From Psammoneis japonica (Eukaryota): a stretch of 64,000 nucleotides of DNA. Under the pieces are notes generated by a model. The model saw only the letters and a program-made list of their open reading frames with translations, did no database searches and was not told where the DNA came from. The DNA is taken from contig QPGO01000035.1 in assembly GCA_008632985.1 (NCBI GenBank), positions 421,899 to 485,898 of the forward strand, given 5' to 3'. The stretch's first letter is position 1, and each line of letters opens with the position of its first letter. A program made the translations under genes and the position numbers. This document shows positions 30,180 to 64,000 of the stretch, in pieces.

Positions 30180-30237
<58 letters not shown>

Positions 30238-30330
30238 TCTCTCTCTCTCTNNNNNNNNNNNNNNNNNNNNNNNNNNNNNNNNNNNNNNNNNNNNNNNNNN
30301 NNNNNNNNNNNNNNNNNNNNNNNNNNNNNN

Positions 30331-30374
<44 letters not shown>

Positions 30375-30800
30375 GTCATTTGTGAAGCACACACCTCTTT
30401 TCCAGACAGCTGTCTGCCTCCCCCCAGGCTGGCAACCTGACACAACAGTCAACAAAAGGTGGCACAATCCCCAAAAAAGAGGAGTGCAAAATGGTGAGAG
30501 ATCTTCTGAAGTGTCCCCAGAAAGTCACTTGGCATGGAGTTTCCACCCATGCCATGACAGGCACAGTGCAGATCTGTGCGCTTCATCCCTGTGGCACAGC
30601 TGCAACTCGGTGCGCCACAGGCCACCGGGGATTTGCAAAGGACCTTGCTGCTGCTGCTGCTGCTGCTGGGTGCTTGTTGCACTGTGGCAGCCAAGTCAGG
30701 CACTGCCAAACAAATGGAGGAAATGAAAACAAACCCCAAAAACGGTGGACATGTCATTGAACGTGCTCTTGTGGAGTTTGGCAAATGGGGAAACGCTGAT
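29085..30800. other. TpA/CpG-depleted tract, probable decayed transposon of unassigned family
   Basis: Essentially no TA over ~1.7 kb, next to TA-rich DNA at 28940-29030. Confidence 0.8.
30119..30372. repeat. (CT)n microsatellite spanning an 80-N assembly gap (30251-30330)
   Basis: Direct reading of the sequence. Confidence 0.99.
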
Positions 30801-31054
30801 GGGGGGTGATGATAACCGCGCAGCGCAGGCAGAGCCGCAAACACAGATAGAGTTGGCCCACATGCAACTTGTGAGGAATCCAGAATTCTGCTTTTTGATT
30901 TTCTCTCTCAAAAAAGATCCGCGCCGAGTGCCGAGTCCGTCTTCACACACAACAATTAACCCGACAGCGGCAGCAACAATAACAACAACATCATTTCGCT
31001 GTTGTTGTCATTTGCATAGCTACACAAAACACACTTTTTTATTTGTATGGCATC

Positions 31055-42967: not shown

Positions 42968-44452
42968 CTCTCACATTTTGGCGTTTCGCGATTCGCGAAC
43001 CCCACCATCAGAACCCAGATAATTGCGACGACACCTTCTGCTTTTTGAAATCTGTTGGGCAATCCAATGCGATGGGTTAGAAATGATTCAGTTTTTAAAA
43101 TAAAACGGTGAAAATACAGTGACTCCTGCACTTGGTCTCTCTACCATTAGTTTATTGTCCACTTGTCTTGTTTCTTCTTCTACCTGTCTGCAACAATCAG
43201 TTGATAAAAGGTCCTCTCTAGTTTCGTCATATCATTCCATGACAAAATGGATGTTATGATTCGACGTAATGTGTTGGTTGTTCATTCCGAACATCGTCAA
43301 CGCACACCGGCAACAACGCAAAGCCGAGCAGTCAGGAAAGAAGTGAATGAGAAGAAGCCGAAATTCTTGGTTCGTTTAAACGAATCAAGTAGTAGGATTC
43401 GGTTTCCGCTATTGTGTAAGAGCGATCCTCCTAAACTTCATCCATCAGAGGCTTTGACAGGCGACGTACCGGGAGCTTATACTTGGTGTTGTGCCATGTG
43501 GTGTCACGGCATGGTATCTTATTCAGAGGGTCCGACTTCCTTCTAGTTGTACGCATAGCGAAAACTCCAAGACCCAAAACTCACCTCATAGCTCAAAGAA
43601 TAAATCTATCTACACAATTTCAATTTGATGTAATATGAAGCCTAATAGTATACTTTAATTTATGAAATAACAGCGTTGTCTCGTTTCTTTCTGTCTCGTT
43701 TTCTTTTCCAATAGACAACACACGCACAATAATCACACGCAAATCTCGCCTCCAATACACAAGTCATCCAATAACTTGGAGGCGGCGCGGATCTTCCTTG
43801 GGTTCTCTCCCTCTCTCTAGGGATCGTCTAGTGTGCCGGCAAAATAAATGAGATCTGTGTTAGGGGCCGGTGGACAGGGAGGAGCAGGCGCTAGTCCAGC
43901 CTCTTGAGCTGGTACGGGTACGCCTCCACTGGATCCAGTGGATGATGAGCTGCTTGAACCAGTGGATCCAGCGGATGATGAGCTGCTTGATCCCGATCCT
44001 GAACCAGAAGAATAGTAGGGAAGCTGGCGGCCGCGCATTCCATGTCTCTGAGCATTTGCATCGTTACTGAGAGCAACTCCCAGGGACGCAAACAACAAAC
44101 CGACTTGAAGGAACTTCATTGCGTGATTGACTTCTTGTGCAAAAAGTGTTTTATTATGAGAAGCCCTACAAGAGGCGAAGATGGAAGTACTTCAGTCGTT
44201 GTTGATGGCTTTCAAAGAATCATCGAAAGCGGGATGCTGACACCCAGAACACAATCGAATCTTCTTTTTGAATTTTCAAGTTTCAAATTGTTTGATACTG
44301 AAGCAAAAGGATTCCAATAAACGGAATCTTGCTTCACCACGATTTTAAGAATTGAGACAATTCCTATTGTCGAAAGACTGGAGAAGATACGAACCTTGTG
44401 AGACTTCTTTTGATGGATTCCGGTCGTGGCAAAATGTTCTGCTCTTCTTGCA
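42968..44452. repeat. Segmental duplication, copy A (direct repeat of ~61119-63100)
   Basis: Colinear shared blocks, e.g. ttttgaaatctgttgggcaatccaa, catggtatcttattc, gtctcgttttcttttccaatagac, acacaatcgaatcttctttttga and gtcgtggcaaaatgttctgctctt. Confidence 0.93.
43817..44119 (-). CDS. Small secreted Ser/Gly-rich protein with RxL (RQL) motif, 100 aa
   Basis: Signal peptide MKFLQVGLLFASLGVALS, RHGMRGRQL, and a paralog at 61992-62765. Confidence 0.8.
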   Translation of the reverse strand: MKFLQVGLLFASLGVALSNDANAQRHGMRGRQLPYYSSGSGSGSSSSSSAGSTGSSSSSSTGSSGGVPVPAQEAGLAPAPPCPPAPNTDLIYFAGTLDDP

Positions 44453-44699
44453 CGTAGATGTATGTATGTACAGTATTGTCTTTGAACAACCTAAATTCGT
44501 ATGACGCTATACGGATACAATAATTAGTACATAGGACCCTATGTTCTACATAGCTAATGCTGTAACAGAAATGTCAATCGCACTGTAGAATTCTATGTAC
44601 CGCAGTACAAGATCATTCACATTTTGCATTCCAAAACGACGCCCACAAAACCTTGCCAAAAGAGCAAGAGTGGAGACTCGAGAACTTTCCCTTCATGCG

Positions 44700-47050
44700 A
44701 GTGAGGAAGGACAAGCAAAGAGATTGAGCGAGAAGACGTGCTGCAATTGCACCTTGGGGTCAACTTGCCAAACATGTGGTTGCTCATGGGTGCCAAAAAC
44801 ATGGCAGACCACGCACCTCCTGTGTTTGCTTCCACAAACGCAAGAACAAGAAAGGACTCTCAACTTGCAGCACAAGCAACAGGCATTTGGACAAGAAGCA
44901 ATGGAAACTTCAAACCTTCCCAGAATCCAGTCCAATTCAGCCGAAAGTTTGTCAACTCATCAACGACACCCCTGATGTTGCCGACAAACAAACAAAAACC
45001 AGGCCAACACCGAAGCCAACAAAGAAAACATTGCACCCAACAATCAAGAGATGGACACTGATGAGGGCAGAACCAATGAGGAAGTTGACACTGCCACAAG
45101 GAACAGTGTGCAGTTGGAGGACAGACAGGGCTTGAGAAGGGGCTGTCGTTCCGTCAATTGACTGCACCATGACACACCCAATGACTTCAATTCAAAAGCA
45201 AAACAGACCACACACAAGAAGTGTGGCAAGACATGTCATCTCAGCTGTGGCACTGAACTGGATGGTGGAATGTTGGATGACAAGACAGGGCAAGAGCATT
45301 GGCGCCGGCCAGTGTCCCACCCATCGCAATGATGCGACGTGCCAAATGGCTCGATTGGCAAACGATTCATTGCAACATTGGCACAGCTGCTGCACGGAGT
45401 CATGATGTGGAAGTGGAACTTGGAAAGATTCACAGCACATCAAATGGTTGTTTTGTGGTGGGACCACAATGCAAAAGGAGTGAAAGATGTCAGAACTTTG
45501 CTGAGCACGCGCACGGACGATTGGGACGCAGGCAAGCACAAAATGCTGATCCAGTCAGCAGAGCGGCTGCTCACAAAGCTGACCTGAAGACCACTCAGAA
45601 GGAGGAGATGCCTGAACAGTGTGCTGAGACATTCAACAGAATGGTGCTCCAAGGGAACCCAAGAGGAGCAGTTGGGCACATCTGTGAATGCGAGAAAGAG
45701 GTGGAATTCTCTCACTGGATGACATCGACGAAAAAACCAAGAACGACTCAGTGTTTGAGGTGCTTTAGAAAAAGCATCCAAATCAGAGGATCCCAAACAA
45801 TGAAGACCATTTTCACAAATTCAGTGAGCTGCCCAAGCTCCAGGACATCCTTGCCACCAAAATGGCGCCATCAAGACCATCGCACGCAGACTGTCCGGGG
45901 GCGCAGGACTTGGTGGATCTGATGCCAATGCTGTGTCAGAATGGCTTCTCCATCACAGAAAAGCCAGTGGATTGCTCAGAGAAGCATCACGCATGTTTGC
46001 AAACTGGCCAGAAAACAAGCAACCCCATGGGCTGCATGTCATGCAATCATGGCAAAGCAACTTGTCACGCTAGACAAAAATCTGGGCATGCATCCGGTCG
46101 GCATGGGGGAAGCATGGCAACAAGCCACTGCCAAAGCTGTTCTCCCAGTTGCCAGAGCAGAAGCCAAGAAAGCTTGTGGGACAGACCAGCTGTGTGCTGG
46201 GCTGGAAGCATGCATTGAAGGTGCCATCCACACAACGAGCATGCTCTGGGAGCAACGCAAATTCGGATGCATGTGACTGTTGGTTGGCAGAAAAAGCTGA
46301 GTCATGGACCTTGGTCATCCAGGGACTTGCCAAGATCACAATTCACCACCCTCAGACTGCCTGTGCCGGTCTGCAGAAGTCTCCACAACACCAGTGGCAA
46401 CATGTCCAGCATGCAGCAAAGGACTGTGGCAAATGTTTGCCGATGCAGAGCACGAGACACAGTGCAATTTTCTGTCGGTGCCGATCAGTGAGACCCCAAC
46501 CAACGATGACCCAAGACCAGCCCTGTCTGCCCTCCCAATCAAATTTTCGGGACTGTCCATCCCTCATCCAACAGAGTCTGCAGCTCACAACTGTGAAGCA
46601 AGTGCTCTCACGTGCTCCCACATGATCAACTCACTCTGCGGCCGCTCCCAGTTCTCCTCCGCAGTCCACAAGGACACCATGCGCAAAGTGAAACAAGAAG
46701 CAGCCAATCAAAAAGTTAAAGCACATGGGAGACCCTCAAAATGATCCTCAGGACCCTGTCCTGCCTTCAGGCCAGAGCTGTCAAGTGCAGCACCAAGACT
46801 GGAGTGTGGCTGTCAGCATGCCCTTCGACACTGAATGGCACAGAACTCTCATGCCAACAGTTCCGTGACACGCTCTTCTTGTGGCATGGCGGCACTCCGC
46901 CAGACCTCTTGGAGCACTGCAATGGATGTGGATGCAAGTTCTCCATCAACCACACCCTCTGGTGCAAGAAGGGTGGCCTGGTCATCTCATGACATGATGA
47001 AGTGTGTGACAACCTGGGTGACCTGATTGGCAAGGCTTGCAAATCATCAT
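44700..47050 (+). mobile_element. CRE-like non-LTR retrotransposon relic (RT + zinc finger), internally deleted
   Basis: LDKNLGMHPVGMGEAWQQ...ACGTDQLCAGLEACIEGAIH (cf. RPIGIGE..RR...QLCAGLEAG.EGAIH), HPQTACAGLQKS, LPIKFSGLSIP and GTELSCQQFRD...CNGCGCKFSINHTLWCKKGG. Confidence 0.8.
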
Positions 47051-47229
47051 GTGACAACCAGGTGACCCAATTGGCAAGGCTTGCAAACCTTCCCATGCAC
47101 GTGACAAACCATGCATGCCATGGTGGCATCACATTCCTTGGCAAAAGTTGGGTCATTTGCCTTGAGTTCCAAAGTGAATTTACATGTCCAGCACAGCCGT
47201 TGGAGCATCCAGAGTGAGCGGGAAGCAGT

Positions 47230-50220
47230 GTGAGAAACCCAGAAAAAAGGAAATTGTTGAAGAGAAGATGCTTCAGCTGCCAACGTGGTGGATCTGGCAA
47301 CACTTTGAGAATGATCAAGGTGTGTGTCTGGCAAGGCCCCAGAAGACATGGCATGCATGACTTTTGCTCTGGTGAGAGTCCAACGTTGCAGATGGCATCT
47401 GCAGCGGTGCCGGCAGCATCAGCCACAGATTGCCAGAGTGAGGCAAACAAGTGGGCCAGAGAGGAAAGGCAGCTGGAGCATGATTGCAAGATCAAGTTGC
47501 ATGACTGCAATGAGAAAAGTCAAGAAGCTCAACAAAGAGAACAAGAGTGCTGCATTTGCAGCAATCCTGGACAATTGCTGCTTGGGGCCAATGAGCAAAG
47601 ATTGCAGGCTGATCTCAGTTGCCCGAGCATCAGGGATGACCCAATTGAGCTGCTGAAATTGATCCAGTCACTTGCGCTCCACTCCTTGAGAGGTCAACAC
47701 CCATTCCATTTGCTTGTCAAGTCCCTGAAGCTCACACTGGATGTGAGACAACAAGAGATGAGTGTCACTGAATGACTGCCTGTCAAGATTTAAGAATCAA
47801 AGAGACATTGCAAGGAAAATCTCAGTGGAAAGAAGCCAGATTGATTCATGATCATGAATGCCAAGGAGTGCAAGAATTGCACCAACACAGCAGATCAGAA
47901 AGCACTGAAGGACACTGCATTCAAGACATGGACCACATGTTTGTTTGTGGAGAACAGCAATGACCACACCGCTGCAAGAGCCTCAAGAAGAGCCTTGTGA
48001 GAGACCACAGCCTGGGGAGGGACTCTCATCCCAAGATCCTTGACAAGGCAATGGATGTGCTGCTGAACCATCCCAAAGACAACCTTTCAAACAAGAGGCA
48101 GAGCAAGAAGAGTGATGAACATCCAAACAACAAGAAAGATGACAAGAGCAATGACAAGTCCAAGAATCTGCAAGACCAGAGTCATGCACAGAGTGGCAAG
48201 ACAACATGCCATGGTTGTGTTGAGCCAAACCACAAGTCCCCAAACTGCAGGCACAACAATGAGATTCTGCAGAAGTGCTGGTGCAAGAACACCAGTGAGA
48301 AATTGCATGCCAGGGAACACAGTCACACACAGAGAGACAAAGACAATTTGTCTGTGATCAGCGACAATGCCAGCATTGATGCCTGCAACTGGCATGGGTT
48401 CCAAGCAGATGAACAGGCCAAAGATGGGGCAGAGAGAAGTTTGAGCCAAGGACATTTGCATCAAGTCAAATGAGATCATCGTCAATGACAGTTCTGCCCT
48501 TGGCACAGCAGCAAGTCAGAAACGGGTGCACAATGTGCAACCAGCAAGGATCAAGATTGGTCTGTCCACCAACACTGGAGTGGACACTTCAGACAGAGAC
48601 TGCACTGTGCCAGGATGGGGTGACATGAAGAAGCTTGGATCACAAAACATGACAGAAAACATCCTGAGTCAAAAGGATGTGAAGAGCAAGCACTCATCCA
48701 TTGGACTAAAAGACTGGCAGACAAGTTGTGGTGTGTTCAAAGTTGACGACATTGGGCTGCATGCATTTGCACCAAGCCAGTGATTCCATGACCATGAAAA
48801 AAAACTGCAAGAAGATGAGTTGCATGTGAGCATGCTGTCAAAGGAATGAAAAGAAGGTCACAAAGAAGACCAACAAGAAGCACAGGAGCGCACACTGGGA
48901 GAGTGCATCAGGAGCCATTGTTCCAACTGTGAAACAGAACATGAAAGGCTGCACCAAATGAGCAACAGCAAGTGCTGAGGAAGCACTCAAACCACACTGC
49001 AAAGCCAAAATGCCCAGTGTGAGGGATTTCAAGCCACTTTTATGATCCAATTGGGTGAAAAACCCATCCATCATTCCTGAAAACGTGAACAGAATGGTGG
49101 CCATTTGGGGTCCACCAGCAGATGCACTGTGAAAGGCAAGTCAAGACCAAGCAAGCACACCACTCCTGTGAGAGGAACAACACTGTTGCAACTCCACCTG
49201 AAATTTACAAAAAGAAGAAGAAGAGAGAAGGTGTGACTCTCTGCACTGATGTCACAGAAGCATGCAGTGTCAAGATGCTGCACATGGTTAACAAGACAAT
49301 CAAGCATTGATGAGGTGTGAGACTGAAGTCCAAGAGAAACATGCACTTGTGTTTGCAAAGCCTTGGACATGATTCTCCAACAGCACAGTGTGGCCCTGTT
49401 CAAAGTTGACTTTGTAGAGTGTGATCCAGAGTTCAAGGACACACTGGCAGAAGTCACGGATGGCATGAATCTGGAACTTGTTGCATCTGCAAATGCCAAC
49501 GATCATGTCCCCAAAGTTGAGTGAAGCATCCAGACCATCAAGGAGCAAACCAGAGCCACTGCACATGACATGCCATGCAAGACAACACCCATGTTGATGT
49601 GCGAGCAAGCCGTGATCAAGAGCGCTGTCATGTGGAACATGCACTGGCAACAGGAAGGGATTTCCAACACTTGCGGTCCACACACCATCATGCGTGAAGA
49701 GTCTGAACAAGACAAAGAACCCCAGGAGAATGCAACAAGATGGGGAGGTGAACGATTGGAGGAAGATGGCAAGTGTGTTGTGCTGAGCAGGATTGCAAAA
49801 TGCAGAGCATCTTTCAACATGAAGGCAGACACCAGAAAAGCAGCAAGGGAGCAACACACAAGCTCAAGTGCTGCCATCATCTGTGCACCAATGTGAGCCC
49901 CAATGCAAAGGACAATGTTGAGTGTGAAGTGGAGACAGCAATGGTGCTTGCGTGCTTCATGTGAGAGATTGATGGCCAACTCTGAAAGCAACATTTGCTC
50001 CACAAAGGCCTCAAAGCATTTGGCCAGAAGGAGCATGATGCCTCAGAGAAAGAAATCAAACATTTGCACAACTGAGTGTGCTTTGCACCATGCACCAGTG
50101 TCAGTCAAGGATGTGACTCTGACTGAAAGGAGGGCCAAGGCCATGGCAGCCTTGATGTTTCCAACCAAGAAACGAGATGGTTGTGCAAAAAGGCAAATGG
50201 TCTGCTGTTGACGCCCATGA
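47230..50220 (+). mobile_element. Copia (CoDi-like) LTR retrotransposon relic: gag, integrase, start of RT
   Basis: DDPIELLKLI, DHSLGRDSHPKILDKAMDVL, knuckle CHGCVEPNHKSPNC, integrase DPEF...DHVPKVE*SIQTIKEQTRA and RT LMFPTKKRDG. Confidence 0.8.
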
Positions 50221-52289
50221 AGGATTCCATGAAATGAGTGCATTTGTGGGGGCAATGATGCCAGCCTGGAGAAGGCAAAGACCAGATTGTGATGAAGATT
50301 GAAAAAGTGCCAGTGGACATGCCAGTGAGCCTTGATCCCAACCTGTGTGGACCTCATGTGGTCCCAGAAAAAGGCAACAAGAGAGTCCTTCATGTCCAAC
50401 AAAAAAAGTCAAGAGATTGCACAAGAGAGTGAGGACAAAGGATCCAAACTGGTGTTCCCAGCATGAGGAATGGAAAGACAAGATCTGTGGAGAGGATCCC
50501 CAGGGTTGCAGAGGTGCCACAAATTGAAAGAACTGTCAGAAACCATGACAGAAATGAAGACAAGCTGTGAAGCAGCAGTTGAATGTCTCACCACTGCTGC
50601 ACCAATGTTCTCTGTCCTGGACAACAAAGAGATTGCATCTCCAACTGTGGAGCATGCCACTGATGCACACAAGACCAAAGAATTGTGGCAGGCACCAGGA
50701 GCTGATTCCCAGACAAGACAGATTAACAAACAATGTTTGGCACCCAAAGAACATGTCTGAGTGACATTGCCACATTGTGTCACAAGTTGAATGTTGTCTT
50801 TCCTGCCTTTGGCACAAGGAGCAAGAGTGGGGTTTGTGGACCCCTCACAAATCTCAAGGATCTTGACCCTGAGAACACACAGGAGTAATTTGGACTCATG
50901 CTGGATGCCAAAAAAGCGCTGCACATGCACGGCATTCCTGAATTTGACAGAAACAGTTGACAGTTGGGTCATGGACTGCCTTGGAGGTGCAGAAGATGAG
51001 AAGAATGAGAAAGAGAAATGTTGTCACACCAATGTGGAGCACTCTGTGGAGAGTGTGCATGGGGCCATGTGTGCATTCAATGATTTGATTGATTGCAGGG
51101 ACAGTGGCAAGTGCACACATTTGTGCATTTGCAAGTTGCAGGACAGTGGTGACAGTCCTGAAATGAGCGGCAATGGCGCCAAGAGTCCTGAGCAGACTGG
51201 TGAGCTGCAAGACTGCAATGAGTCCAATGAACACAGGCCACATGAGCAGCAGAACATTGATGCAAGCATCAGGAGTGTGTTCAAGCATGTGGAACAAGCA
51301 AGAAACATGAGAATTCCTGGAAAGGAAACTGTTTCAGAAAAGATGCTTTGGCTGCTGGTGTGGTGGATCTTGCAACACTTTGAGAACAAATCTGCATTCA
51401 TTGCCAATCTCACCAACCTTCTTCTGTTGCAATCTTTGGAGTGAATCATCTGGTTTGTGCAAATTGCATTGTGGTGTCAGCAGGCACCTGTCATGCCACA
51501 AGATCAAAGTTTGTTGAGGACTTCAAGGTAAACCACAGCTGCCACAGAAACAGAACCAGTGTGACAAGCATCACATGAAGCCTCAGTGGATTCCCTTTTG
51601 GTGGCATTGACTTGTTGGTTCAAGAACAGCACCCAATTTTGGGTTGGCATCTCAGTGAGTGAGGGCTGGGTTGAAGACAGCAGCATGTTTGGCATCATCA
51701 TGCTTGCAAGTTCTGTGGCTGTGAAATTTCAAAAGACAACCAGCTGAGAAGTCTTCCTTGCAACCACCATTGGCATTGTGGAGCATGCACTCATCAACCA
51801 AGGGAGACCAGAGCTGAGGATGACAACAGTGAGTGCATGTGCACACAGTGACACAGCCTTCTTTGGGTTGCACAGAAACACACAAGCTGCCAAACCCATG
51901 AAAAGTGGCCCCTTTGCCAAGATCTGGATTGACCTTGAGGGGATGTGGGTTGTTGGTTGGTGGTGCAAATGGTTGGCAGCTGTGTGCACATCAAGTTGTG
52001 CACCACAACATTCATTGGCACATTTGAGCTGAAAGGCATTGACCTGAAAAGCTTCATGTCAGCATCAAAGGCAACAGACAGAGAGGTGCAGCATGGCACA
52101 TTTGTTGAGATGCACACAGAAATGAGGGTGGCAGTGCCAAAGCCAAAGCTGACAATTTCTTGCACGTTGCACTTTGAACACATGTGATTTCACAGACACA
52201 ATGACACACACAAAAAAGAGGTGACACATTTTGAGAGTGTTGCTCCACTGTCTGTGTGGGAATGACCCACTCACTGAGACTCTCTCAAA

Positions 52290-55200
52290 CCAGGAGAATC
52301 ATGACTCTGCTGAAAAGAGGAGCACTGTTCACACAGTGAATGGTGCAATGGTGAGTTGTTGCCACTGCCTGAAACATGTGCTGGGTGGCAGCAGCTGGTG
52401 ATTGTCCAGGCAGCCCTGGCAAGGAGAAAGCAGCACAGCAATGGAACAGGCAGTGGTGGATGTCAGCAGACCAGTTGGAGTCCTTGCACTCCACAAGTTT
52501 CACAGAGGATTTGGCCTGTGGTGGTGGGGCAATGCAGTCATGAGGAATAGTCAGGAGTGGGAAGGAGGTGGCATGAATGGGAGGAGTGGATGATTCAGGC
52601 ATGTGAGGCCAAAGCATTGGTGTTCATTGAGAGGCTGAAGAATCTGTTTCACAACTCCATGGAAATCCTCATCACCTGGGTTGGAGCCAAGCTGACTCAG
52701 CTCAGTGATGGAGAAACCCCCACTGAGATCCACACATGCAGCCACCATTGCCTGCATCAGCTTGCCAACAGCCTTGCGGCATGAGAAGCCATGCTGTGCT
52801 TTGAGGGCATGAGATTTGTTGGTCATCAAGAGGGAGGGAGCTTCATTGAGGTTGTGGTGCAGGTTGCATCATCCAGCATGGGCAATTTGGCAATGCCACA
52901 TTGTCCCATGGGTGGGAAGGTGATGAAGGGACAGTCAGCCACAACCTGTTTGATGCAGGATGTGCTGTGGAGACAAGCACAATCTCCAGTGTTTGTTCAA
53001 CATCACATGCAAGGAACAGTTTGAGGAGGCCCTGGCAGTTTTTGATCTTGCTGCCTTTTCACATGACTTGTGGCGGGTCTCATCAGAGTTGGAAGTGATG
53101 GCAAAGTCATCAACTTGACACAGAAATGGGTTTTTCTTGCAACTCACCTTTCCACTGCAGACAAAAGGTTCATGTGTTGTTGGGGTGAGAAAGACTGCAT
53201 TGTGAAGGATGCCATCAATGTGGACATTTCCACAAATGGGGGGACTTGGGGTGGCCCAGGAGCAATTGGAGGACTGCTGGGAGAACAAAGCATTCTGGCA
53301 TGGGTGGACAGCAAAGATGTTCAGTCCACCAAATTTGAAATGCTTTGTCAACTCACACACAGAATGTGTGCCGGGAAGGGAAGCTGCCATGAATTCATTG
53401 CTGATGTCAATGCCACACACTTCTCAATTCTTAAGAGTGCCCCACCAGAGTGGAGAAGAGGCAAGTGCTTGGTTGCTCCACTGAAGCTGCGCACATTTGA
53501 TCAAGGGTCTGCATGCAGCCAGATCAAGGACTGCCATCACATGTGCCATGGGCTTTCTTGGTGTGGTCAAGATTGTTCTTGACAAGGCAGGGCCACACCC
53601 AGCTAAGCACTGCTGCACCCTGGGGAGGTGGCATTGGTTCACCAAACATGCCTCAGGTGCTGTGCATGTCCCAGTTGCTCAAATTTGCTGGGTTGCCAAT
53701 TGGTCCAGTCCTCTTGGATGAGCAGTTTCCATTGAATGAGTTTTTGCATGGCCATGGTGGGAAGCGCAGGGTCCTTGATGGTCTCCAGTTGATGGCAAAT
53801 GTGGTTGATCTGGTTGAGAAAGAGCTGCAGGCAGTGGACCGCCGGAATCCAGTGTTGGGGAAGAGCAGTCATGAGCAAATTGGAGTGCGGTGGCATCATT
53901 GTCTGAACAAATGGATTGCACAACCTTGCCCAAAGATGGAAGATCAGCTGCAGGGTGAGAACACACAGCAGCAAACAAGACAGGCACATTGCAGCTTGGA
54001 TCTCCAGTGGGGCACAGGACTGGCACGAGAGCTCAAATGACAATGCTGCAGGTGCAGTCAGCCATGGTTGGAGTCATGGCTCAGCTCCAGTCCACAGAAT
54101 GGTTTGGTGGTGCCCCATGTGGGTGACAAGGGGGTGTCAAAAGAGCAATCAAATGGGTTGCAAGACACAGCAATGGTGGCAACAGATTCCAAGGCAATCA
54201 GATCTTTTGGCGTGAGGGATGCCGCTGCAGCAGTGTGTGACTCCTCATCAATGAATGTGCTTTTTCCTGGTGGCAGTTGGCTGTGCAGACAATCTTTTGG
54301 TGTCTGTGACTGGGGTGACAGATGGGGGGGGGGGCTGACTTGCTCAATGCCCAGATTGAAGAGCAGCTGAGGTCCTGGAGGTCTGATGGGTTGTGCAAAG
54401 TGCGCCTCATCACAGGTGGCATGGTGGTTGGTCTTTTCTTGGCCAATGGTGGTGGTGTCCCCATGTCAAGTGTTCTGTTTGTTGGTGGCCACACAGTCAA
54501 TGAAGATGCCATTGAATGTGTGGCAATCCAATTTCACAGCTGGTCCATCAGGTCATCTGGCATTTGCTTGAGATCCAGAAGCCTGAAGTTGGGGCAGATC
54601 TGGGACATCACCCACCCATGCTTGGTTTGGGGTCAGGTTGATTGAAGAATGCCAAAGGTGATTCTTGAGATAGATGGCATGAACCAAAGCATCAGAGCAG
54701 CACGCAGCTGGAAGGCCAGATGAGTGAAAAAGGGCCCAAACCACAACTCCAAAAGTGTTGTTGAGGATTTTGACATGGCCATTTTGCCAAGGGCTGTCTG
54801 AGCCTGTGGTCTTCATGACATGGTCATGTTTCAAACACATCTTGCAGAAATCCTCCAAACACACAAGTTTGCCACTCTGGTCTGTGCAAACACAACACAA
54901 GCCAGACTTGTGACTGTGGTGAGAGAGGAACACATCCAGCAATTTTGTCGTCGGGGGCTCCTTGCTGGGAGTGAGAAACACCCACATCCACTGATGAGTC
55001 TCGGCATCCATTGGTGACAAGAGGGAATTGCAGCCATCACAGGATTGGACAACCCAATCCACTTGATCTTTCTCATGTCCTGCTTGTCAGCACAAGGTTG
55101 CATGTCAGGCCCTGATGCATGCATGAACTGCAATCCATGTGAAAATGGTCAGTGGGTGTGAGATGGGTGTCATCCTAGATTGCCCCCCCCCCATGGACAA

Positions 55201-55450
55201 TCAATGGTGTTGGGCATCATCACACACATTGCAGGAGCAATGTGGTGTGGCACCAGCTGCAGCAGCTGGCACACTGGTGACATGGCATTAGAGGTGTTGC
55301 AATTGGTGCATGCCAGGGTGTCCCAGGTTGTTGTGATGTCCCAGTTTGCTGCTTGCAACTCAGATCAAAGAGTGAAGAATCAAGTGGAGCTGGTCATCAT
55401 TGGGCTCAGCAGTCTTGGGAGGTGGCTGGACATTGCAGTCATCTGGCTCT
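52290..55450 (-). mobile_element. Second Copia relic (integrase-RT-RNase H); probable gag remnant at ~59500-60900
   Basis: WVFLTPSKEPP...CTDQSGKL...GSDSPWQNG...ALVHAIYLKNHLWHS (integrase), TTHEP...FLCQVDDFAI (RT) and DSNWSAD (RNase H). Confidence 0.82.
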
Positions 55451-55800
55451 GGTTCAGAAAGATGTGCCAGGGTTGCCAGGGTGGGAAAAGTGTGTCCTTT
55501 CTCAACAGAGGTGGGAGCATGCATGGTCAGCTTTTGGAGAGCCCCATCAAGTTTGGTGGCAGATGAGGCAAGTGGGATGTTGGGACGAATGCAAGGAACA
55601 AACCACCCACCATTTGCATGAACCACAGGGAAGGTGCACATCAGAGAGTGGTCTTTGTTGGCAAATGTGCAATCAGCCTGTGTCCCACACCCATGCAGTG
55701 TGGCACATGAAATTGGCTGCATCTCTCCACAGATGAGCAACCAATGTGGTTGGGGGAGAATGGCACTTTGCCCAATCCTGTGGTGGACATGATTGTGAGT

Positions 55801-56064
55801 GGCCTGTTCCAGCTCCAGGTGCTCTGCTTTTCATCACGCGAGAGGCCGATTTTCTGTGCAGTTCAGCGCAATTAACACCTTCAATTTTGATCGTTTCGAA
55901 AATCGAAAGGTGAGTGTACACCCGAAAATACATGCAAAGTGTACACTCACCCTTCGATTTGGCAAAAACGGATTTGGAAAAAGTTAATTGCGCCAAATGC
56001 ACAAATTTTCCAAAAAAATGATGGGAATCGAACCCGCGCGGAGCACCTGGAGCTGGAACAGGCC
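55801..56064. mobile_element. Fold-back MITE, 264 bp, 27-bp TIRs, 4-bp TSD GAGT
   Basis: ggcctgttccagctccaggtgctctgc pairs with gcggagcacctggagctggaacaggcc (26/27). Inner inverted pairs gcgcaattaac/gttaattgcgc and aaatcgaaaggtgagtgtacac/gtgtacactcacccttcgattt. gagt lies at 55797-55800 and 56065-56068. Confidence 0.88.
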
Positions 56065-57329
56065 GAGTGTGTTTCATTTTTCCAGGATGAATGGCATTGC
56101 ATTTCACAAAATCCATGAGCTTGGCATGTTGAGCCAAATGAGAGCAGTGATGGTGACTGTGTCCACATGAGATGCATGCATCACATGTGAGGTCCTTTCA
56201 TTGTTGAAAAATGACCAGCTGGCAATCCAACTGTTGTTGGGTCTTGCAACTGAAATGGCTGCAAACCGGGTTGGACAGAGGAGGGAGCTTGGGATTAATT
56301 TGAGCAACAAGGGACACAAGTTGGAAATCACGAGGAAGCGTGGCATGCCACTGAAATGCAAAATTTGTGTCACAAATTAATTCACAAAGGCAAATGGCTT
56401 AAATTTTTCCCCAATGAAAGCACGTGCAAGGTCTCTGAATGCTTTGTTTTTGCTTCAGACAAGCAAATGTAACAGTTTTGACAAGAACCGCAGGTCTGAA
56501 AGTGACACAAAACAACAAAACAACTGGATTGTTGTCAACACAAAGAGCTGCATGATGTTTTGTTTGTGAGGAAAGGTGGTGCAATTGTGAAACAAAAAGG
56601 ACATTTTTGTTGAAATCTTGCAATGCATTGGCATGAGTTGCTGTCATGAGGAGAAGGCAATTTCCTTTGAAAATGACAATTTCTTGTCATTTCTTGTGAA
56701 TCACATCTTTTCTCAATCAAAGCAAAAGAATGCTTGCACCTTGATTGCACTGGAAGATGTGGCAAAGATGATCTTGGAGGGTGACAAGGTTGTGTGTCAT
56801 GACTTGCCTCTTGCAGCAATGGTGCAGAATTCATTTTCACTGAGTTCATTCAGCCAGTGTTTCAGAAGCATGGCAACTGGTCATGTGTCACCAGAAGTTG
56901 TTGCTTCCAACAGTTTGAGGGACTTGTTCCATTTGGCATGCATTGGGGGATCAGCAGTTGTGTTCAAAACCCAGCACAGAAAAATGTGTGGCTCTTTTTC
57001 TGCTCCTTGCAAAGATGATGTTCTTGAAGCACATCATCTTGGAGCAGTTTGGAACAGATTTCCATTGAGCACTTCCACCAGTGAGAGCTGCCAATCTTCA
57101 CGGAATTGAAAAAGTCAGGCAGAGTGTTCAAGAAGATGGCAACATGCCATTGGACAACTCAAGGGATGGCAAAGCAGGGGCTGGTGTCTCTCACAGAAAA
57201 CTTTTCAGAGGAAGATGCAGACTTACCAGCAGACAGACCTCTGGATGCATCCACAGAAGGCAGTGGATGAGCAAGGGCAGGGCCAGCAAGACAACCTGCA
57301 ATGTTTTTGAGAATCATTGGAATCTTTGT

Positions 57330-58350
57330 GGCTGCTGATGCGTCAAGCAGCCAGGGGGGCGGGGGGCAAGGAACCTGGTGATGCATCAGCCATCACCGGT
57401 GAGTGGGTGGAGGAGGATGAATCAAGGGAAGATGCAACCACGGGCAGTGGTGCTGCCAGCTGGGCAAGCTTGGAGGCACTGCACCACATGTTGGTGAGCT
57501 CTTCATTGAGGCCATTGCTTGACTGTGCAAGGTGTGGCATCAGACACCTTCTTCTAAGACTCTGCAGCTTGGGCAACTGCCTCATTGATGGAAGTGGATG
57601 CTTTGCTGGATGGATGTGTTTTGTTGTCTCCATGAACAAAGAGGAGGGACAGCCAAAAATGCAAACTTTCAAAGATGAACATCATCACATTTGTCATTCT
57701 TGGAGAGAAGGACATCCACAACATTCTTTTGCTTTGCTGCAAAGACTTTGAAAGCAATGGCATCAATGGCTGTGTTGTTTTGTTGAGCTCAGAGGAAACC
57801 ACAGATTTGAGGATAATCCAGTGTGGAGTGAGAATTTTTCACACTTGTTTTGAATGATTCAAGGGCTGACTGCAGATGATGGGTGTCAACAAGTGCACAA
57901 CTGCATCTGGGCCTGCTGGTGGTGACACTGGGCCAAAGGAAAGCAATGTTCCCAGCAGCACAACCCATGCATTGTTGCCACCAATCTTGGCAGGAATGCA
58001 ATCAATGGCAGCATTTTCAAGAAGGTGCTGGAAGGAACACACTCAAAATTTCATGCACACCCACCTCCATCACATGCCATTGTGTGGCTCATGCAAGCAA
58101 CCTCAAGTGGAAAAAGCAGGGCACTTGGGTGCAAGCATGTGGATTTTCAAAATGAGCCATCCAAGGACATTTTGTTTGCAGCCTGTCCAGATGCTCATGT
58201 CAAGTGAGCTGGGAATGAATCAAGTCATTTGGACCCGCTTCTCAAGCTTTGCCATGGCCACCCTCTGACAAGGAACCTCAAGGAGGACATGGAGAAAAAG
58301 GGAGGACCAGCTGTGCTGTTGGCTTTTTTGAGGGAGTGTTGAGCTCCTGA
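57330..58350 (+). mobile_element. PIF1-type helicase relic, probably Helitron-derived
   Basis: Degenerate motifs in order across frames: PGG.GGK-like, ATTGSGAA, LIDGS, VELRGNHRFEDNPVW, RNAINGSIF and DPLLKLCHGHPL. Confidence 0.55.
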
Positions 58351-61300
58351 GGGAAGGTGTTTTTTGGATGATTTGGAGTTGATGAGGATTGATGGTCATT
58401 GAGTGAGGTCAGCCAGTGTTTCACAAGTTGAGAGTCCGCTGTCTTGAGGCATCATGAGGAGAAGGCAGAGAGGAGGAGGTCTGCTTTGTGTGGCTCCAAG
58501 AGGAAAGAAACATGTGTTGTCAACTTTTCTGTCCCCATGATGGGCTTCATTGACAAAAGAACTTCAAGAATCAGCCAAAGACACAGATGACCTGGCTCCC
58601 AAAGTCAACAATGCAGCAACTGCCCACAACTGGGGAGCATGACGAAGAGCTGAGAGCCAGACTGTCTGAGACTGCAAAGAGGCAACTGGGTTCATTTGGC
58701 TCTGTCCACAGTGACAACAAGAAAGGGACTTTGTGGCTTGGGAAGAAGCTTGATGGCAGGAAAACAAAGGGCATGTCATTGGTGTTGAATGAGTTCCTTG
58801 GTCACTTCAGGCACACAAGAGGGGGCTCCAAGAAGTCTTTCAGCAGGCTCTCTTGCTGCAAATGACCACACAAGGCATTGCAACTAAAGATTGCAGTCAC
58901 CAGATGTTGATTTTTGACAATGTGGCAACAAACTGGGCTTGCATTGTGTGATTGTTCTTGTCAGTCCTAGAAACAAGGGGGTTGAGTTGTTCATGCATGA
59001 TCCCTGGTTTGAAAGTGAGTGTGTGTGCAAAAAGCACAAAATCTAAAAATCCATGGTCTCAATGATTTTCACATCCACAGATTGAGGTGAATGACAGAAA
59101 GACAAAAGCAACTGGCATTCAAACATTTGTGTTTGATGACCTCAAAATGGAAAAACAGCCAATCAATTGGCCAGAGGAGTCAGTGGCATCCCAACCAAAA
59201 AATGACTGGGGCAATTCAAAATTGGGCATCTTTCACATTTGTTTACAAAACAATTTGTGTGGAAGTCCCAAAGCCTTCAAAAGTCATTGGACACCATTTT
59301 GCACACAAAGACGCCTTGGGAATTTGGTCATTTTGAAAGTGGTCAGCCCCAAAGCCCAAACCCCATCTTTGTCTCACCCGTCTGTCTCCGGTTGGGGGTC
59401 AGGGCAGGGAGGAGACAACACAGATGGATTTTGGAGTGCAAGTGTTTGGGCCATCACACCATCAAACTGTTCATGCAGGGCATCCACAAGCTGTTCAGAG
59501 AAAACAAAGTGTTGGAGTGCAGAGGGTCTGTGAGGTTGGGAGGTGGAGAATCAGTCTGATGAGTGGCACAGTCACTGAGCATGCTGCTGGCACCATGGTG
59601 TCAGCTGCAGACAAGCCATTCTGCGCAGCCATTTTGGTCATGCCATGTGCCCCAAGATTGGAGGAGTTCCATCTCCTGAGTCATCTCCTGTTTGCATGTG
59701 GCAGCTTGATTGCTCAATTTTTTTTGAGTGTTGCCAGCAAAATTGCCAAGTTGCTGCAAGCCATCAGACACCACATTTTGATGTTGTCTTTGCAGTGCTC
59801 CTGTGCAGTTGTCTCAAGGAGAGTGGCAGCCTGTTTGGTGGAAGAAGTTTTGAGCTTGTGTCAAGCTCCATCTCTTCTTGGCAGCTTCCAGGCCTGGGGT
59901 CCAGGTCAGAGATGGTCCTGCAGTTTTTTGTCAATTTCAGGAGTGGTGCACTCCTTGAGAGTTTTGACAAAAGCAGCATCTTCTGCTTCATTTGCTGTTT
60001 CAGATGCCAGGGCAACAGTTTCATTGCGGCATGCATCCATCTGGTCATGAAGATCTGTGCTGACAGCATCCAATTTGGATGCAAAATGGTTGGGTGACAT
60101 GGACTCAAGCAGAGACTGTCACTCTGCCCAACATTGATCATCATCCTGAGCACTGCAAAAATCCTGCCTGAGCTTTTTGAGCTCTGCTGTGGCACCGGCA
60201 AAATCATTTTGACATGCAGCAAGCTGTTGCATGGCCTTCTTGAATGATTGTTGTTGTTGGCAGGTCACAAGAGCAGCAGACAATGTTGGCAGCAATCGGC
60301 TTCATCTGACGGTGTTTGGGCCAATCAGGAGGGAGAGGGGTGAGAGATGGAGGGTGCTGTCAAGCTGGGGTGGAGCATGGGTGTCAGCAGCCAAATGATC
60401 AGCAGGGGTCAGAGACAGGGACTTGGGCAGGGTGGGAGCTTGTGCAGTGTCAACTGGGTTGCTTTCTGCCTCTGTGACATCAGCTGCAGCAGTGAGCATG
60501 GGTGTGGGGAAGGAGGGCAGGCTGCATCATGCACCACTGCAAACACAGTCAATGTGGTCATCACGATGCTGTTGCTGGATGTGACAGCAGCAACAGGAGT
60601 GCTGAGTGAGCTTTTGCCCTGCACCAATGCTGGAGACAGAGCAGGATGCAGAGATGAGTGCTTTGCTCACCACAACAGCCCGTCTTGGAATGGGTGCTGT
60701 GGGCAGGAGCCATCTTGGTTGTTGTTTGTTGTGCTCAAAGAATGCCAGCTGTGCATGTGACAGCAGGCAGCATTTCTTTGCTGGCACACCTCACACAAGG
60801 TCTTTGTGCAAGCAGAGCATGTGCCACACCACGCCATGCATCAGACATTGGCCAACGACGCTGACAAAAGCACCAACAAGGAGAAGGACAGTGCATCCAT
60901 GGCATCAACACAGCAGAGGTGGGTGCATTGCAAGTGCTCACTGCCGTTGTTGACTGCAACATGCTGAACTGTTTTTGTTGTTTCGCGTGTGCCACTGCTC
61001 TCTCTGCTTGCTCTAGAGAGAGAGAGAGAGAGGGGCCCTGTCCCGGCTTGCTTGCTCGCAGCAAAGCTGAGAGTGATCCACTGTCGCGCCCGCACCCGCA
61101 TGGCTGCATGCGGTGGGATCACATTTTTTGGCGTTTCCGAACTCCGAACCCCGAACCCGCCCGGCCTCGATGAAAATTCACACGACACAACTTTCTTGTG
61201 GTGTTTTGAAATCTGTTGGGCAATCCAACGCAATGGGTCAAAAACAGATTTGTTTTTAAAACAGTGAAAGTGCAGTGATTAAAGCACTTAGTCTCTCTAG

Positions 61301-61991
61301 CATAATTAGATTGTGGTCAAGCTGTCTTGTTTCTTCGTCTACCTGACTGCAAAAATCAGTTGATATAGTTTCCTCATTTCATTCCAAGCCAAAACCGTAC
61401 ATAGATGACCACAATGTAAAAGGTGACTCACAATCTCATGACGACTCGACGTATGTAATGGTGTCGGTTGTTCATTCCGAACATCATCGGAAACGCACAC
61501 GGCAACAACACACGGCCGAGCCGACACAAGTACCAGAAAATGTGAATGAGAACCCGGGATCTAAAAAATTCTTCGTTCGTTTACACGAATCAAGTAGGGG
61601 GATTCGGTTAGTGATCGTGCAAGAGCGATCCTACCAAACTGCATCCATAATGTGCTTTGACAAGTGAGATTATATTTGGTTTTGTGTAATGCGGTCATGG
61701 CATGGTATCTTATTCGCCATGGGTCCGATTTCGTTCTAGTCGTACAATGCGAAACCTCCAAGACCCGAAACCAGCGTCATAGCTCAGAGACTAGATCTAT
61801 CTACCAGTACGCAATATCAGTTTGATATATTATGAAGTCTAATAGTGTATAGTTTTTAATTTATGCAGCATTGTCTCGTTTCTTTCAGTCTCGTTTTCTT
61901 TTCCAATAGACAGCACACACAATGCAAATCTCGTCTCCATTGCACAAATCATTCAATAAGAGGCGGCGCTAATCTTCCTTGGGCTCTCCCT

Positions 61992-62765
61992 CTAGGGTGG
62001 TAGGGTACCGGTATAAAAAGTGAGCTCTGTGTTCTTTTCCGGTTCACATGGAGGAGCAGGTGCTAGCGTTTGCGTCTCTTCGATTGGTACGCCTCCACTG
62101 GATCCTGCTCCGCCACTTGAACCGGACTCTTCGATTGGTACGCCTCCACTGGATCCTGCTCCGCCACTTGAGCCACTCTCTTCAATTGGTACGCCTCCAC
62201 TGGATCCTGCTCCGCCGCTTGAACCAGACTCTTCGATTGGTACGCCCCCACTGGATCCTGCTCCGCCACTTGAACCACTCTCTTCGATTGGCACGCCTCC
62301 ACTGGATCCTGCTCCGCCACTTGAACCAGTGGATCCAGTGGTTCCTGCACCACTTGAACCAGTTGCAGTGGATGCCGCACCGCTTGAACCAGGGCTAGTT
62401 GCACCTTCTTGAACACTGCTTCCACTGGCTGCGCCACTTGTACCAGCTGTAGTACCACTTGAACCAGTTGTAACGGATGCTGAGCCACTTGAACCAGTGC
62501 TAGTTGCAGCTTCTTGAACACTGCTTCCACTGGGTGCGCCACTTGAACTGCTAGTTGCAGCTTCTTGAACACCACTGGATCCCGATCCTGAACCACTACC
62601 GTTTCCACCGGAATCCGCACCGCCCGATGTAACTGCTGAGCTTCTAGAAGTACAGTCTGTACCGGAAAGCTGGCGGCCGCGAAGACCATGTCTCCGAGCA
62701 CATCCATCTTGACCGAGAGCAACTCCCAGCGACGCAAACAACAAACCAAGTTGAAAGAACTTCAT
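61992..62765 (-). CDS. Secreted Ser/Gly-rich RxL protein with 17-aa repeats (paralog of 43817-44119)
   Basis: MKFFQLGLLFASLGVALG...RHGLRGRQL; GSSGGAGSSGGVPIEE x5; LAPAPPC tail shared with the paralog. Confidence 0.85.
   Translation of the reverse strand: MKFFQLGLLFASLGVALGQDGCARRHGLRGRQLSGTDCTSRSSAVTSGGADSGGNGSGSGSGSSGVQEAATSSSSGAPSGSSVQEAATSTGSSGSASVTTGSSGTTAGTSGAASGSSVQEGATSPGSSGAASTATGSSGAGTTGSTGSSGGAGSSGGVPIEESGSSGGAGSSGGVPIEESGSSGGAGSSGGVPIEESGSSGGAGSSGGVPIEESGSSGGAGSSGGVPIEETQTLAPAPPCEPEKNTELTFYTGTLPP
62081..62335. repeat. Coding tandem repeat, 5 x 51 bp
   Basis: cgattggtacgcctccactggatcctgctccgccacttga recurs every 51 bp. Confidence 0.95.
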
Positions 62766-63547
62766 CGTGTGATCGATCTTGCCTTGTGCCGAATGTGTTT
62801 TCTGTTTTATTATGAGAAGCCGGAGAAGAGGAGATGGAAGTAGTCGTATTGGTTTATGTTGTTGATTGCTTTCAGGAATCGGACGCGGGATGCTGACACG
62901 AAGAACACAATCGAATCTTCTTTTTGAGTTCACAAGTTTCAAATTTGATACTGATCAAACGGATCCCAAGAACGGAATCTTACTTCACCATGTTTGTCAG
63001 GATTGCCGATTACTATTGTAGAAAGAGTTGAAATATGAGAACCTTGTGAGATTTCTTTTCAGGGTTCCTGTCGTGGCAAAATGTTCTGCTCTTGTTGCAT
63101 TTATACTATCTTTGGGCTACGAATGAGATATTAAAAGTTTATCACATATAATGCACCCAAATGCGTTTGGACATATTCAGATACATATACCTAGTAAATG
63201 AACGATTTTTGGTGGGAAACTCTTATGACATTCTTCATCTCTTTAGCATTATCAAACATAATCACCATCGTAGAGTTCTACACGATATGCGGGTTTTTGT
63301 AGGTAAGTTTAAAAGACCGATTATGCGTGGTGTACAGAATTTGACATTAGACTATTTGACAACCAAACCAAATTTTATATCGTAAACGACAATGACACAA
63401 GATAAAAATATACGAGCCGTTGCAAAAAACACGGGTTGCTCTTACGAGAACAGAACACGAGACAAAAAAAGACGCGTGCGAGACATCGAAATTCGAGGCT
63501 CTGCCGCAACTGCAACCTGTTGTCAAGATGGCACAATGATGCTTAGA

Positions 63548-64000
63548 TTGAATTTGATTGAGCTCTTGCCAAGTTTTTTAGCATGTCAATCCACTGCAAG
63601 CATCTTCTTCTTGATTGCTGCTTTGTGAGCAAATCCCCCTGATGGCAGCCAGTGCAAGAGCAACAAAGAGTGCCAACTCTCTCTTTTTGCATCTAGAGCA
63701 AGGCTCTTTAATCTCTTGTTGTGAACAACCTCAATTGCAGTGCAGATGCATTCCAGCTCTGGAGGTGTTCCCTTGGTTGTGACAGAGCACACAGCAGTGC
63801 ACACACAGAACGTGTCAAAAATCACCTCTGCCAGTCTCCAACAACACGCGAGCACTTTTTTTTGTGCTTGGGTTGAATTTGATGGAGCTCTTGCCAAGTT
63901 TTTTAGCATGTCAATCCACTGCAAGCATCTTCTTCTTGATTGCTGCTTTGTGAGCAAATCTCCCTGATGGCAGCCAGTGCAAGAGCAACAAAGAGTGCCA
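63548..64000. repeat. Direct repeat with 325-bp period inside a TpA/CpG-depleted tract running off the window
   Basis: 63548-63676 is near-identical to 63873-64000. Confidence 0.9.

Follow-up and report, generated by a model that had tools for sequence, protein, structure and literature searches.

We analyzed a window of 64,000 nucleotides from the diatom Psammoneis japonica (contig QPGO01000035.1, positions 421,899 to 485,898 of the forward strand), numbered here from its first letter. The window is gene-dense, and long uninterrupted frames are typical of it. Within it lie four tracts in which the dinucleotide TpA and, less strongly, CpG are depleted and TpG and CpA are in excess, the largest of them being an island of decayed mobile DNA. 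We call these tracts erased, and give dinucleotide frequencies as observed/expected ratios (O/E).

44607-61040, no strand: main island, decayed mobile DNA in which TpA and CpG have turned into TpG and CpA, delimited by composition and edges
15324-17300, no strand: second erased tract (15301-17300: TpA O/E 0.14, CpG O/E 0.55)
29080-30812, no strand: third erased tract, TpA-free over 1734 nt (29101-31000: TpA O/E 0.04, CpG O/E 0.25), content unclassified
63501-64000, no strand: fourth erased tract (TpA O/E 0.14, CpG O/E 0.15), running past the end of the window

Between positions 44620 and 61270 (16,651 nt) we counted 37 TpA dinucleotides where 1068.0 are expected (O/E 0.03), in agreement with the initial annotation, which had estimated by eye about 30 in 16.6 kb against roughly 1,000 expected. 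CpG is reduced to 171 of 990.1 expected occurrences (O/E 0.17), and CpA (1943 observed, 1041.9 expected, O/E 1.86) and TpG (1862 observed, 1014.9 expected, O/E 1.83) show the large excess that had been claimed for them. ApT (0.92), GpC (1.16), TpC (0.99), ApA (1.09) and TpT (1.22) are ordinary. The last two values speak against DNA polymerase eta, whose WA>WG signature had been proposed as a candidate cause, since ApA and TpT are undepleted. The G+C content stays at 0.49. The state is uniform along the island: all 16 consecutive 1-kb windows (45001-60001) have a TA O/E of 0.00-0.11 and a TG+CA O/E of 1.72-2.05, as compared with a TA O/E of ~0.4-0.7 and a CG O/E of ~0.7-1.3 in most windows beyond the four tracts. 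The left edge is abrupt, with TpA every few bases until 44606 and the next TpA only at 45766. On the right, TpA is rare until 61256 and dense beyond, and CpG is back earlier, from ~60830. The non-coding flanks a few bases off the island are dense in TpA, and the edges are sharp within tens of bases.

The further tracts were found by scanning the whole window in 400-nt windows. Their presence at 15301-17300, 29101-31000 and 63501-64000 bears out the initial claim that the same state holds in four separate tracts. In each of the four, TpA is more depleted than CpG, which indicates that TpA was lost faster. Four short patches of low TpA within ordinary genes have normal CpG and a mild excess of TG and CA, and were not counted as tracts. 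The stop triplets TAA and TAG are almost absent from 44000-62000, where 23 stop-to-stop frames of at least 150 aa lie on both strands; such long false frames open in erased tracts because only TGA stops remain. For annotators, erased tracts are therefore a trap for gene callers, and their protein relics escape Pfam. The third tract also holds a CT/Leu-Ser microsatellite (29938-30726) with an assembly gap (N at 30251-30330).

The bases were compared with independently assembled contigs of one public sequencing run, which contains 89% of the sampled words of 46000-55900 and is probably the source sample; 2100 of its contigs were aligned to 43500-62500. Two other runs contain next to none of the stretch, and no RNA data set was listed as containing it. 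Eight single-copy contig pieces (569-6407 nt record length, depth 55-67) cover much of the tract and differ from it by 0-4 letters each. The bases are thus supported by independent contigs, and an artefact of the window's assembler is ruled out, though the isolate is probably the same. By depth, the island is a mosaic. Its multi-copy parts lie at 44.6-52.4, 56.2-56.8 and 57.4-59.3 kb, the depth reaching ~1200-1500 at 46.0-47.3 kb (~25 copies) and ~1340 at 58.7-59.3 kb. Its single-copy parts are 52.4-55.5 kb, 56.8-57.4 kb and most of 59.35-61.9 kb.

Over the 2100 contigs, transitions make up 383 of the 497 differing places (A>G 110, T>C 95, C>T 92, G>A 86). Among the listed differences, repeat copies read CA against TG at two shared positions (46401-2 and 58158-9). 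In one 115-nt contig, whose flanks are CpG-rich, TG steps of the window correspond to CG in three places and to TA in one. Twelve short strings from other copies (227 letters) contain, by eye, no TA where ~8 would be expected at background density, so that the other copies seem to be erased too. Among the 40 listed of 501 differences, ten fall in the island at places where the only contigs aligned differ from the window (44902, 47875, 52435, 52437, 52935, 53444, 56922, 56927, 57225 and 57836). In all 10, A or T in the window stands against G or C in the contig; four of them restore CpG in the contig, and at one a surviving TpA becomes TpG. The flanks contribute two listed differences, G>C and C>T. 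The ten island differences could be allelic variation, ongoing change or consensus error.

The following elements were recognized within the main island and the second tract.

52520-55400, minus strand: relic of a Ty1/copia pol gene (integrase, SH3-like domain and reverse transcriptase) with TGA stops, found by protein search and tblastn
47246-47311, plus strand: first copy of a 66-nt direct repeat, 83% identical to 51321-51386, the differences including two CA/TG swaps
51321-51386, plus strand: second copy of the 66-nt direct repeat, pair of 47246-47311
55801-56064, no strand: 264-bp insert resembling a miniature inverted-repeat transposable element (MITE), bounded by 24-nt terminal inverted repeats that match perfectly (55801-55824 and 56041-56064) and flanked on either side by the 4-bp duplication GAGT
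16078-17238, minus strand: open reading frame (ORF) of 387 aa in the second tract, a copy from a hypothetical-protein family (31 homologues, best E 2e-110, 51% identity)

Of the 130 stop-to-stop frames in the main tract that reach 70 aa or more, none matched a mobile-element family of Pfam, the search giving only 2 noise matches at E<=0.01, and the 23 chosen island frames matched none at E<=10. The copia relic was reached by another route. The segment 54208-55086 (minus strand), read through its two TGA stops as X and used as a query against 1.84 billion representatives, gave 1324 matches at E<=0.001, the best with an E-value of 6.5e-50 and 45% identity. The long matches carry the gag_pre-integrs, SH3_retrovirus and RVT_2 domains, some also dUTPase; they are Ty1/copia polyproteins. 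A tblastn search with 18 polyproteins (at least 800 aa) found one relic, 55400-52520 on the minus strand, and nothing elsewhere in the window. In the alignments of the domain-bearing polyproteins the relic is colinear with the copia domain order, integrase being followed by the SH3-like domain and RVT_2.

No repeat pair that might represent long terminal repeats (LTRs) flanks the copia relic. The search of the island for LTRs gave only the 66-nt pair, possibly the remnants of two LTRs. A transition-tolerant alignment over-extended and was discarded. Contigs from elsewhere in the genome join 47314 to 51416 beside the pair, skipping 4.1 kb, which is what one would expect if an element at ~47.2-51.4 kb also existed as a solo-LTR-like or internally deleted copy. 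For a stretch resembling reverse transcriptase (45321-46700), the read-through search returned 2821 candidates, none of them at E<=0.001, and the island outside the copia relic stays unclassified. The main tract is a graveyard of inserted mobile DNA, comprising one Ty1/copia relic and several unclassified repeat families. The initial annotation had spoken of unrelated element classes; this holds only in part, for the copia relic and the unrelated protein family of the second tract, the remainder being unclassified repeats.

The direction of the changes was read from conserved codons. All tblastn alignments were projected on the copia relic, and columns were retained if they are covered by 8 or more homologues with an agreement of 60% or more (207 columns). 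The relic is unchanged at 137 of these columns and keeps 9 of 9 Asp, 9 of 10 His, 18 of 20 Pro and 6 of 7 Trp. Its Tyr and Arg codons fared differently from other residues, of which 135 of 182 (74%) are kept (Fisher p = 7e-5 for Tyr, 3e-7 for Arg). Only one of 10 Tyr survives, the others now being His CAY (4), Cys TGY (3), Trp (1) and Leu (1). Likewise, one of 15 Arg is left, and 11 of the 14 changes are to CAN or TGN codons, including two TGA stops (His, Gln, Cys and Trp are also seen). Several Glu>Lys and Gly>Ser replacements follow a C, as a CpG>CpA change across the codon boundary would produce. The shift is visible in bulk composition: the 150 listed homologues have 1.6-6.7% Tyr, 1.7-9.8% Arg and 0-8.2% Cys (mostly at most 3%), and the relic piece has 0.3% Tyr, 0.7% Arg, 4.8% Cys and 6.8% His.

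The ORF of the second tract behaves similarly. Its 31 homologues have no Pfam domain and are mostly unnamed or labelled as hypothetical proteins, with one Thalassiosira-like label. The ORF keeps 138 of 201 conserved columns but only 2 of 8 Tyr, four being now Cys TGY and two Phe, and its Tyr content is 0.5% against 1.7-3.6% in the homologues. It also shows Leu>Pro as CCA, Val>Ala as GCA, and Thr>Ala and Lys>Glu after T, all of which are expected from TpA>CpA or TpG. As a control, the lactate/malate dehydrogenase (LDH) gene of the window, which has normal composition, keeps 182 of 210 columns, including 4 of 5 Tyr and 7 of 7 Arg. The replacement of conserved Tyr by Cys or His had been noticed in the initial annotation at other places than these two, in HPQTACAG, DHSLGRDSHPK, MPCK and LLKLCHG; for the stretch with the motifs around 46.3 and 48.0 kb the searches gave no homologue.

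We next assigned each residue change to the single substitution able to account for it. In the copia relic these are TA>CA (6), TA>TG (3), CG>CA (14), CG>TG (3, plus 3 ambiguous), other transitions (6-8), transversions (14) and multi-step changes (19), so that TA accounts for 9 and CG for 17-20 of 51 resolved changes. In the second-tract ORF we found TA>TG (8), TA>CA (3, plus 1 ambiguous), CG changes (9), other transitions (10), transversions (18) and multi-step changes (14), that is, TA in 11-12 and CG in 9 of 49 resolved changes. The step from TAY to TGY or CAY explains 7 of 9 changed Tyr in the relic and 4 of 6 in the ORF. Altogether, measured against the family consensus, the two genes show 20-21 single-step TA changes. 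Judged from these codons, the polarity runs from TpA to TpG/CpA, and the Tyr codons in particular lend support to the proposal that a second process beside CpG decay has turned TpA into TpG/CpA in dead mobile DNA, the opposite of fungal repeat-induced point mutation (RIP).

A comparison with relatives gives the same picture at the nucleotide level. Metagenome contigs were scanned with an alignment of the relic and 19 homologues, which yielded 80 loci (432 kb) coding for related copia integrases; they are distant (32-50% amino-acid identity) and come from other organisms. All 80 have a TpA O/E of 0.56-0.99 and a CpG O/E of 0.40-1.16, the lowest 1-kb TpA window being 0.37, and therefore the relatives of the relic are not intrinsically TpA-poor. 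Per kb, the 80 loci contain 51.1 TA, 49.1 CG and 150.0 TG+CA (sum 250), and the relic contains 2.1, 5.6 and 237.8 (sum 245). The gain of TG+CA thus equals the loss of TA and CG, as predicted by transitions at these two steps. Compared with its relatives, the relic has ~4% of the TpA density and ~11% of the CpG density left; compared with the host background, it keeps ~5% of TpA and ~16% of CpG.

The two strands were affected alike. In sense orientation, the two polarised genes show TA>TG (11) and TA>CA (9) about equally often, and the 3806 TG and CA steps follow one another along the tract in random order (1928 runs against 1902 +/- 31 in shuffled sequences, z = 0.8). Strand-coordinated clusters such as processive single-strand deaminases leave behind are thus absent, and the equality of the strands together with the absence of strand runs argues for a process at the DNA level after insertion. 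Adjoining unrelated pieces also have one sharp outer boundary in common. The ratios TA/(TG+CA) = 0.008 and CG/(TG+CA) = 0.038 would mean, for a tract near equilibrium, that the destruction of TpA outpaces its re-creation by C>T at CpA roughly 100-fold.

The few survivors point to a site preference. Among 31 surviving TpA of the island outside the MITE-like insert, 19 are in the context YTAR and none in RTAY (Y, pyrimidine; R, purine), whereas ordinary DNA of the window has 15% YTAR and 33% RTAY (binomial p = 4e-8). YTAR also accounts for 6 of 13 survivors in one further tract and for 5 of 5 in another (63501-64000). A model in which only the base 3' of A decides (TAY) predicts that YTAY becomes YTGY and not YCAY; no such bias in the choice of strand was found (p = 0.24), and the model was rejected. 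Its failure suggests instead that both flanks count about equally, RTAY being the best and YTAR the worst site. The surviving TpA may also have been newly made by context-specific C>T.

The MITE-like insert, which has an internal palindrome, has a depth of 12248 against ~57 for single-copy pieces, corresponding to ~215 genomic copies. It must have landed in an already erased relic. Its intact state has one of three explanations: it is very young, the process is episodic or not continuous over the domain, or the insert is too short to serve as a target. The sparing of a MITE with ~215 copies implies that high copy number alone does not attract the process. The initial description of the system as repeat-targeted is accordingly not supported, since the single-copy copia relic (depth ~57) is fully erased and this insert is unmutated.

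Outside the tracts the window contains recognizable genes for lactate/malate dehydrogenase, a cytochrome-b5 desaturase, a glutamate-receptor-like channel, EF-Ts, a HAD hydrolase and a bactofilin-domain protein. The first of these shares 72% identity with a transcript labelled Attheya sp., and many of the other matches are diatom-labelled, which points to a diatom nuclear genome. No deaminase-like gene is among the window genes, and no tRNA or Rfam family was found in the window. Two features adjoin erased tracts.

13410-15272: glutamate-receptor-like gene, ordinary, whose 5' end directly adjoins the second erased tract
43043-44452, plus strand: left flank of the main island, of normal composition, duplicated at 61204-63099 with 72-79% identity

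The main island sits between tandem duplicates of one gene region that have diverged from each other. A frame for a Ser/Gly-rich repeat protein (61995-62954) is part of these duplicated flanks. Elsewhere, an 875-aa open frame at 2450-5074 (minus strand) has no Pfam match, and its Cys/His patterns recall, by eye, a transposase-derived zinc finger; a 700-nt patch of it (4201-4900) has a TpA O/E of 0.18 with near-normal CpG. The region 21500-24500 contains internal tandem repeats of ~350-1100 nt (77-90% identity) within long minus-strand frames (21285-23030 and 23374-24144) that have no family assignment.

We consider it probable that the erased tracts record hypermutation of bounded domains after insertion, changing TpA to TpG/CpA and CpG to TpG/CpA. 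In such a process, the inserted double-stranded DNA of a bounded domain would undergo two site-specific transitions, TpA to TpG or CpA (A:T>G:C) and CpG to TpG or CpA (G:C>A:T). The strands would be struck equally and site by site, at TpA to near completion (~4% left) and at CpG less so (~11-16% left). The choice of site would be set by the two flanks, RTAY being the fastest and YTAR the slowest, and the neighbouring genes would escape because the domain edge is where the process ends. For the CpG part, the simplest explanation is ordinary deamination of 5-methylcytosine (5mC) in silenced repeats. The TpA part most probably reflects enzymes directed at silenced or foreign chromatin, with a DNA-acting adenine deaminase (ADAT2/TadA-like) as a plausible leading candidate. 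We infer the enzyme, the targeting signal and the timing of the TpA process from the footprint. The initial annotation had named no described pathway with this signature; one has since come to light, as hypermutation of TpA to TpG/CpA was measured in the chlorarachniophyte Bigelowiella natans (Mettrop et al., bioRxiv 10.64898/2026.01.13.699255).

Several observations weigh against this interpretation. The MITE-like insert within the island has 5 TpA and normal CpG, and is unmutated. Transversions and multi-step changes are frequent (33 of 70 changes in the copia relic, 32 of 63 in the ORF), so that the family consensus is a proxy for the true ancestor. Polarisation at the DNA level against a less mutated copy comes from the one 115-nt contig. 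The loss of CpG goes with the loss of TpA everywhere, and one shared cause of both is possible. The available text of the B. natans preprint mentions neither CpG (0 occurrences) nor diatoms. Finally, mutation accumulation in the diatom Phaeodactylum tricornutum gave, in the text available to us, a GC>AT bias with mutable CG, CC and TG and no TpA effect (PMC6604790).

The same pattern and targeting might rest on a different chemistry, namely modification of a base in TpA, which is palindromic like CpG, in parallel with 5mC at CpG. The modified base might be 5-hydroxymethyluracil (5hmU) or a related base J-like product (TET/JBP) mispairing with G, or N6-methyladenine (6mA) that is deaminated or miscopied. 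The site-by-site changes with equal strands and no strand runs are as expected from a system that reads the duplex, and so is a flank effect that is symmetric (RTAY versus YTAR) and leaves mixed sites without a bias in strand choice (p = 0.24). In a dinoflagellate 5hmU is enriched over repeats, and work of the 1980s placed it preferentially in TA and TC, but the own maps of the paper that reports this, as far as its accessible text goes, have no sequence preference (PMC11071213); 5hmU is further described as silencing transposable elements in dinoflagellates (PMC11572971). TpC is not depleted in the island (0.99), contrary to what 5hmU would suggest. The known eukaryotic motif of 6mA is ApT, which is not depleted there either (0.92). 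We regard a modified base as unlikely, though a serious rival where the chemistry is concerned, and the remaining explanations as less likely again. Passive decay, in which old neutral DNA drifted without targeting to the ordinary context-dependent mutation equilibrium of the genome, could draw on a genome that is already TpA-poor (background O/E ~0.5) and on relics old enough to have no Pfam match. Yet non-coding flanks a few bases away are dense in TpA, edges are sharp within tens of bases, 74% of conserved residues other than Tyr and Arg are kept while 96% of TpA is gone, and the loss of TpA exceeds that of CpG, all of which makes untargeted drift very improbable.

Editing at the RNA or cDNA stage is a still weaker contender. 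Here retroelement transcripts would undergo A-to-I editing, or cDNA would be deaminated, and reverse transcription and integration would make the changes permanent. One of the relics is indeed a retroelement, and ADAR and tRNA adenosine deaminases typically edit an A that has a U on its 5' side (bioRxiv 10.64898/2026.01.13.699255). Editing of sense transcripts, however, cannot produce sense T>C (TA>CA, 9) as commonly as A>G (TA>TG, 11). Strand-coordinated runs are lacking (z = 0.8), the ORF of the second tract is no recognizable retroelement, and adjacent unrelated pieces have one common sharp outer boundary. Moreover, ADAR favours TAG and TAA, and these are the survivors. Least probable of all is that the composition is intrinsic to the foreign DNA or an assembly artefact. 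Some viruses do avoid CpG and TpA, and among the listed contig differences one removes a TpA and four restore CpG; against this, conserved Tyr and Arg codons have been destroyed and frames broken by TGA, the relatives are TpA-normal, and independently built contigs agree to 0-4 letters per piece.

Compared with known systems, the enzymatic hypermutation that we favour resembles fungal RIP in that transitions inactivate mobile DNA within sharp boundaries and leave a dinucleotide footprint. RIP, however, changes C>T mainly at CpA, creates TpA and leaves DNA AT-rich, whereas here TpA is destroyed (0.03), CpA is created (1.86) and G+C is 0.49; a dependence on duplication is not supported here. With the 5mC decay of transposons in vertebrates and plants, of the Microbotryum type (TCG>TTG) and under diatom CG methylation, the tracts share CpG>TpG/CpA in silenced repeats, seen as Arg CGN turning into CAN or TGN. 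Such decay alone cannot remove TpA, which here was removed faster than CpG in all four tracts. The editing of retroelements by ADAR or APOBEC before integration is likewise a deaminase-driven hypermutation of mobile elements. It produces strand-polarised clusters (sense A>G for ADAR, plus-strand G>A for APOBEC), unlike the equal strands and unclustered changes found here.

The closest precedent is B. natans. In its mutation-accumulation lines, 231 of 302 nuclear mutations fell in integrated giant-virus and virophage regions, where the rate of ~6e-7 per site per generation exceeded the background ~1000-fold. Of these 231, all but one were A>G or T>C (230, every one of them on TpA), they arose in only some lines, and an ADAT2-like adenine deaminase was proposed (bioRxiv 10.64898/2026.01.13.699255). 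The likeness to our tracts extends to TpA>TpG/CpA on either strand within bounded regions of foreign DNA, and to a long-term footprint of TpA depletion with a gain of CpA and TpG in clusters. The TpA-depleted genes of B. natans are enriched in reverse transcriptase and DDE transposase domains, and here too mobile DNA (the copia relic and multi-copy repeats) is struck and neighbouring genes are spared. The differences are also clear. B. natans is a rhizarian, whereas the present host is a diatom, within the Stramenopiles. Erasure is near complete here (O/E 0.03 against 0.45 for the region of a nucleocytoplasmic large DNA virus, NCLDV, in B. natans), and the targets are transposon relics and a gene copy rather than viruses. 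Its spectrum in B. natans is almost exclusively A:T>G:C, while in our tracts CpG>TpG/CpA is equally prominent, perhaps as a separate superimposed process. The RTAY>YTAR flank effect is absent from the main text of the preprint.

Full-text literature searches returned no report of TpA erasure in diatoms, and Maumus et al. 2009 (PMC2806351) make no relevant mention of hypermutation, RIP, deamination or dinucleotide bias. Among the literature found, this would be the first diatom case of TpA hypermutation. It can be speculated, rather tentatively, that an old genome-defence pathway is common to diatoms and chlorarachniophytes and possibly to the whole SAR group (stramenopiles, alveolates and rhizarians), marking silenced or foreign chromatin and rewriting R-TA-Y by A>I deamination in double-stranded DNA, beside CpG methylation. 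If so, nature would have an adenine editor for double-strand DNA, which might descend from the tRNA deaminase that reads U33-A34. Both self-complementary pyrimidine-purine steps would then be erased, in an "adenine RIP" that kills mobile DNA without AT-richness. Both the biology of genome defence and base-editing technology would have an interest in a natural adenine-editing enzyme for duplex DNA. Before 2026 no cellular pathway was known for mutating A:T at TpA in resident DNA, and the sole report we found is the one preprint on a rhizarian alga. To that precedent the present tracts add near-complete erasure, coupled loss of CpG, the RTAY>YTAR preference, sharp edges and a spared young MITE; the domain edges, the RTAY preference, the CpG coupling and the spared insert offer handles on the machinery. 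A second and more extreme case, in a diatom, would show that the phenomenon is not a curiosity of one species, that it strikes transposons as well as viruses, and that it can run to completion.

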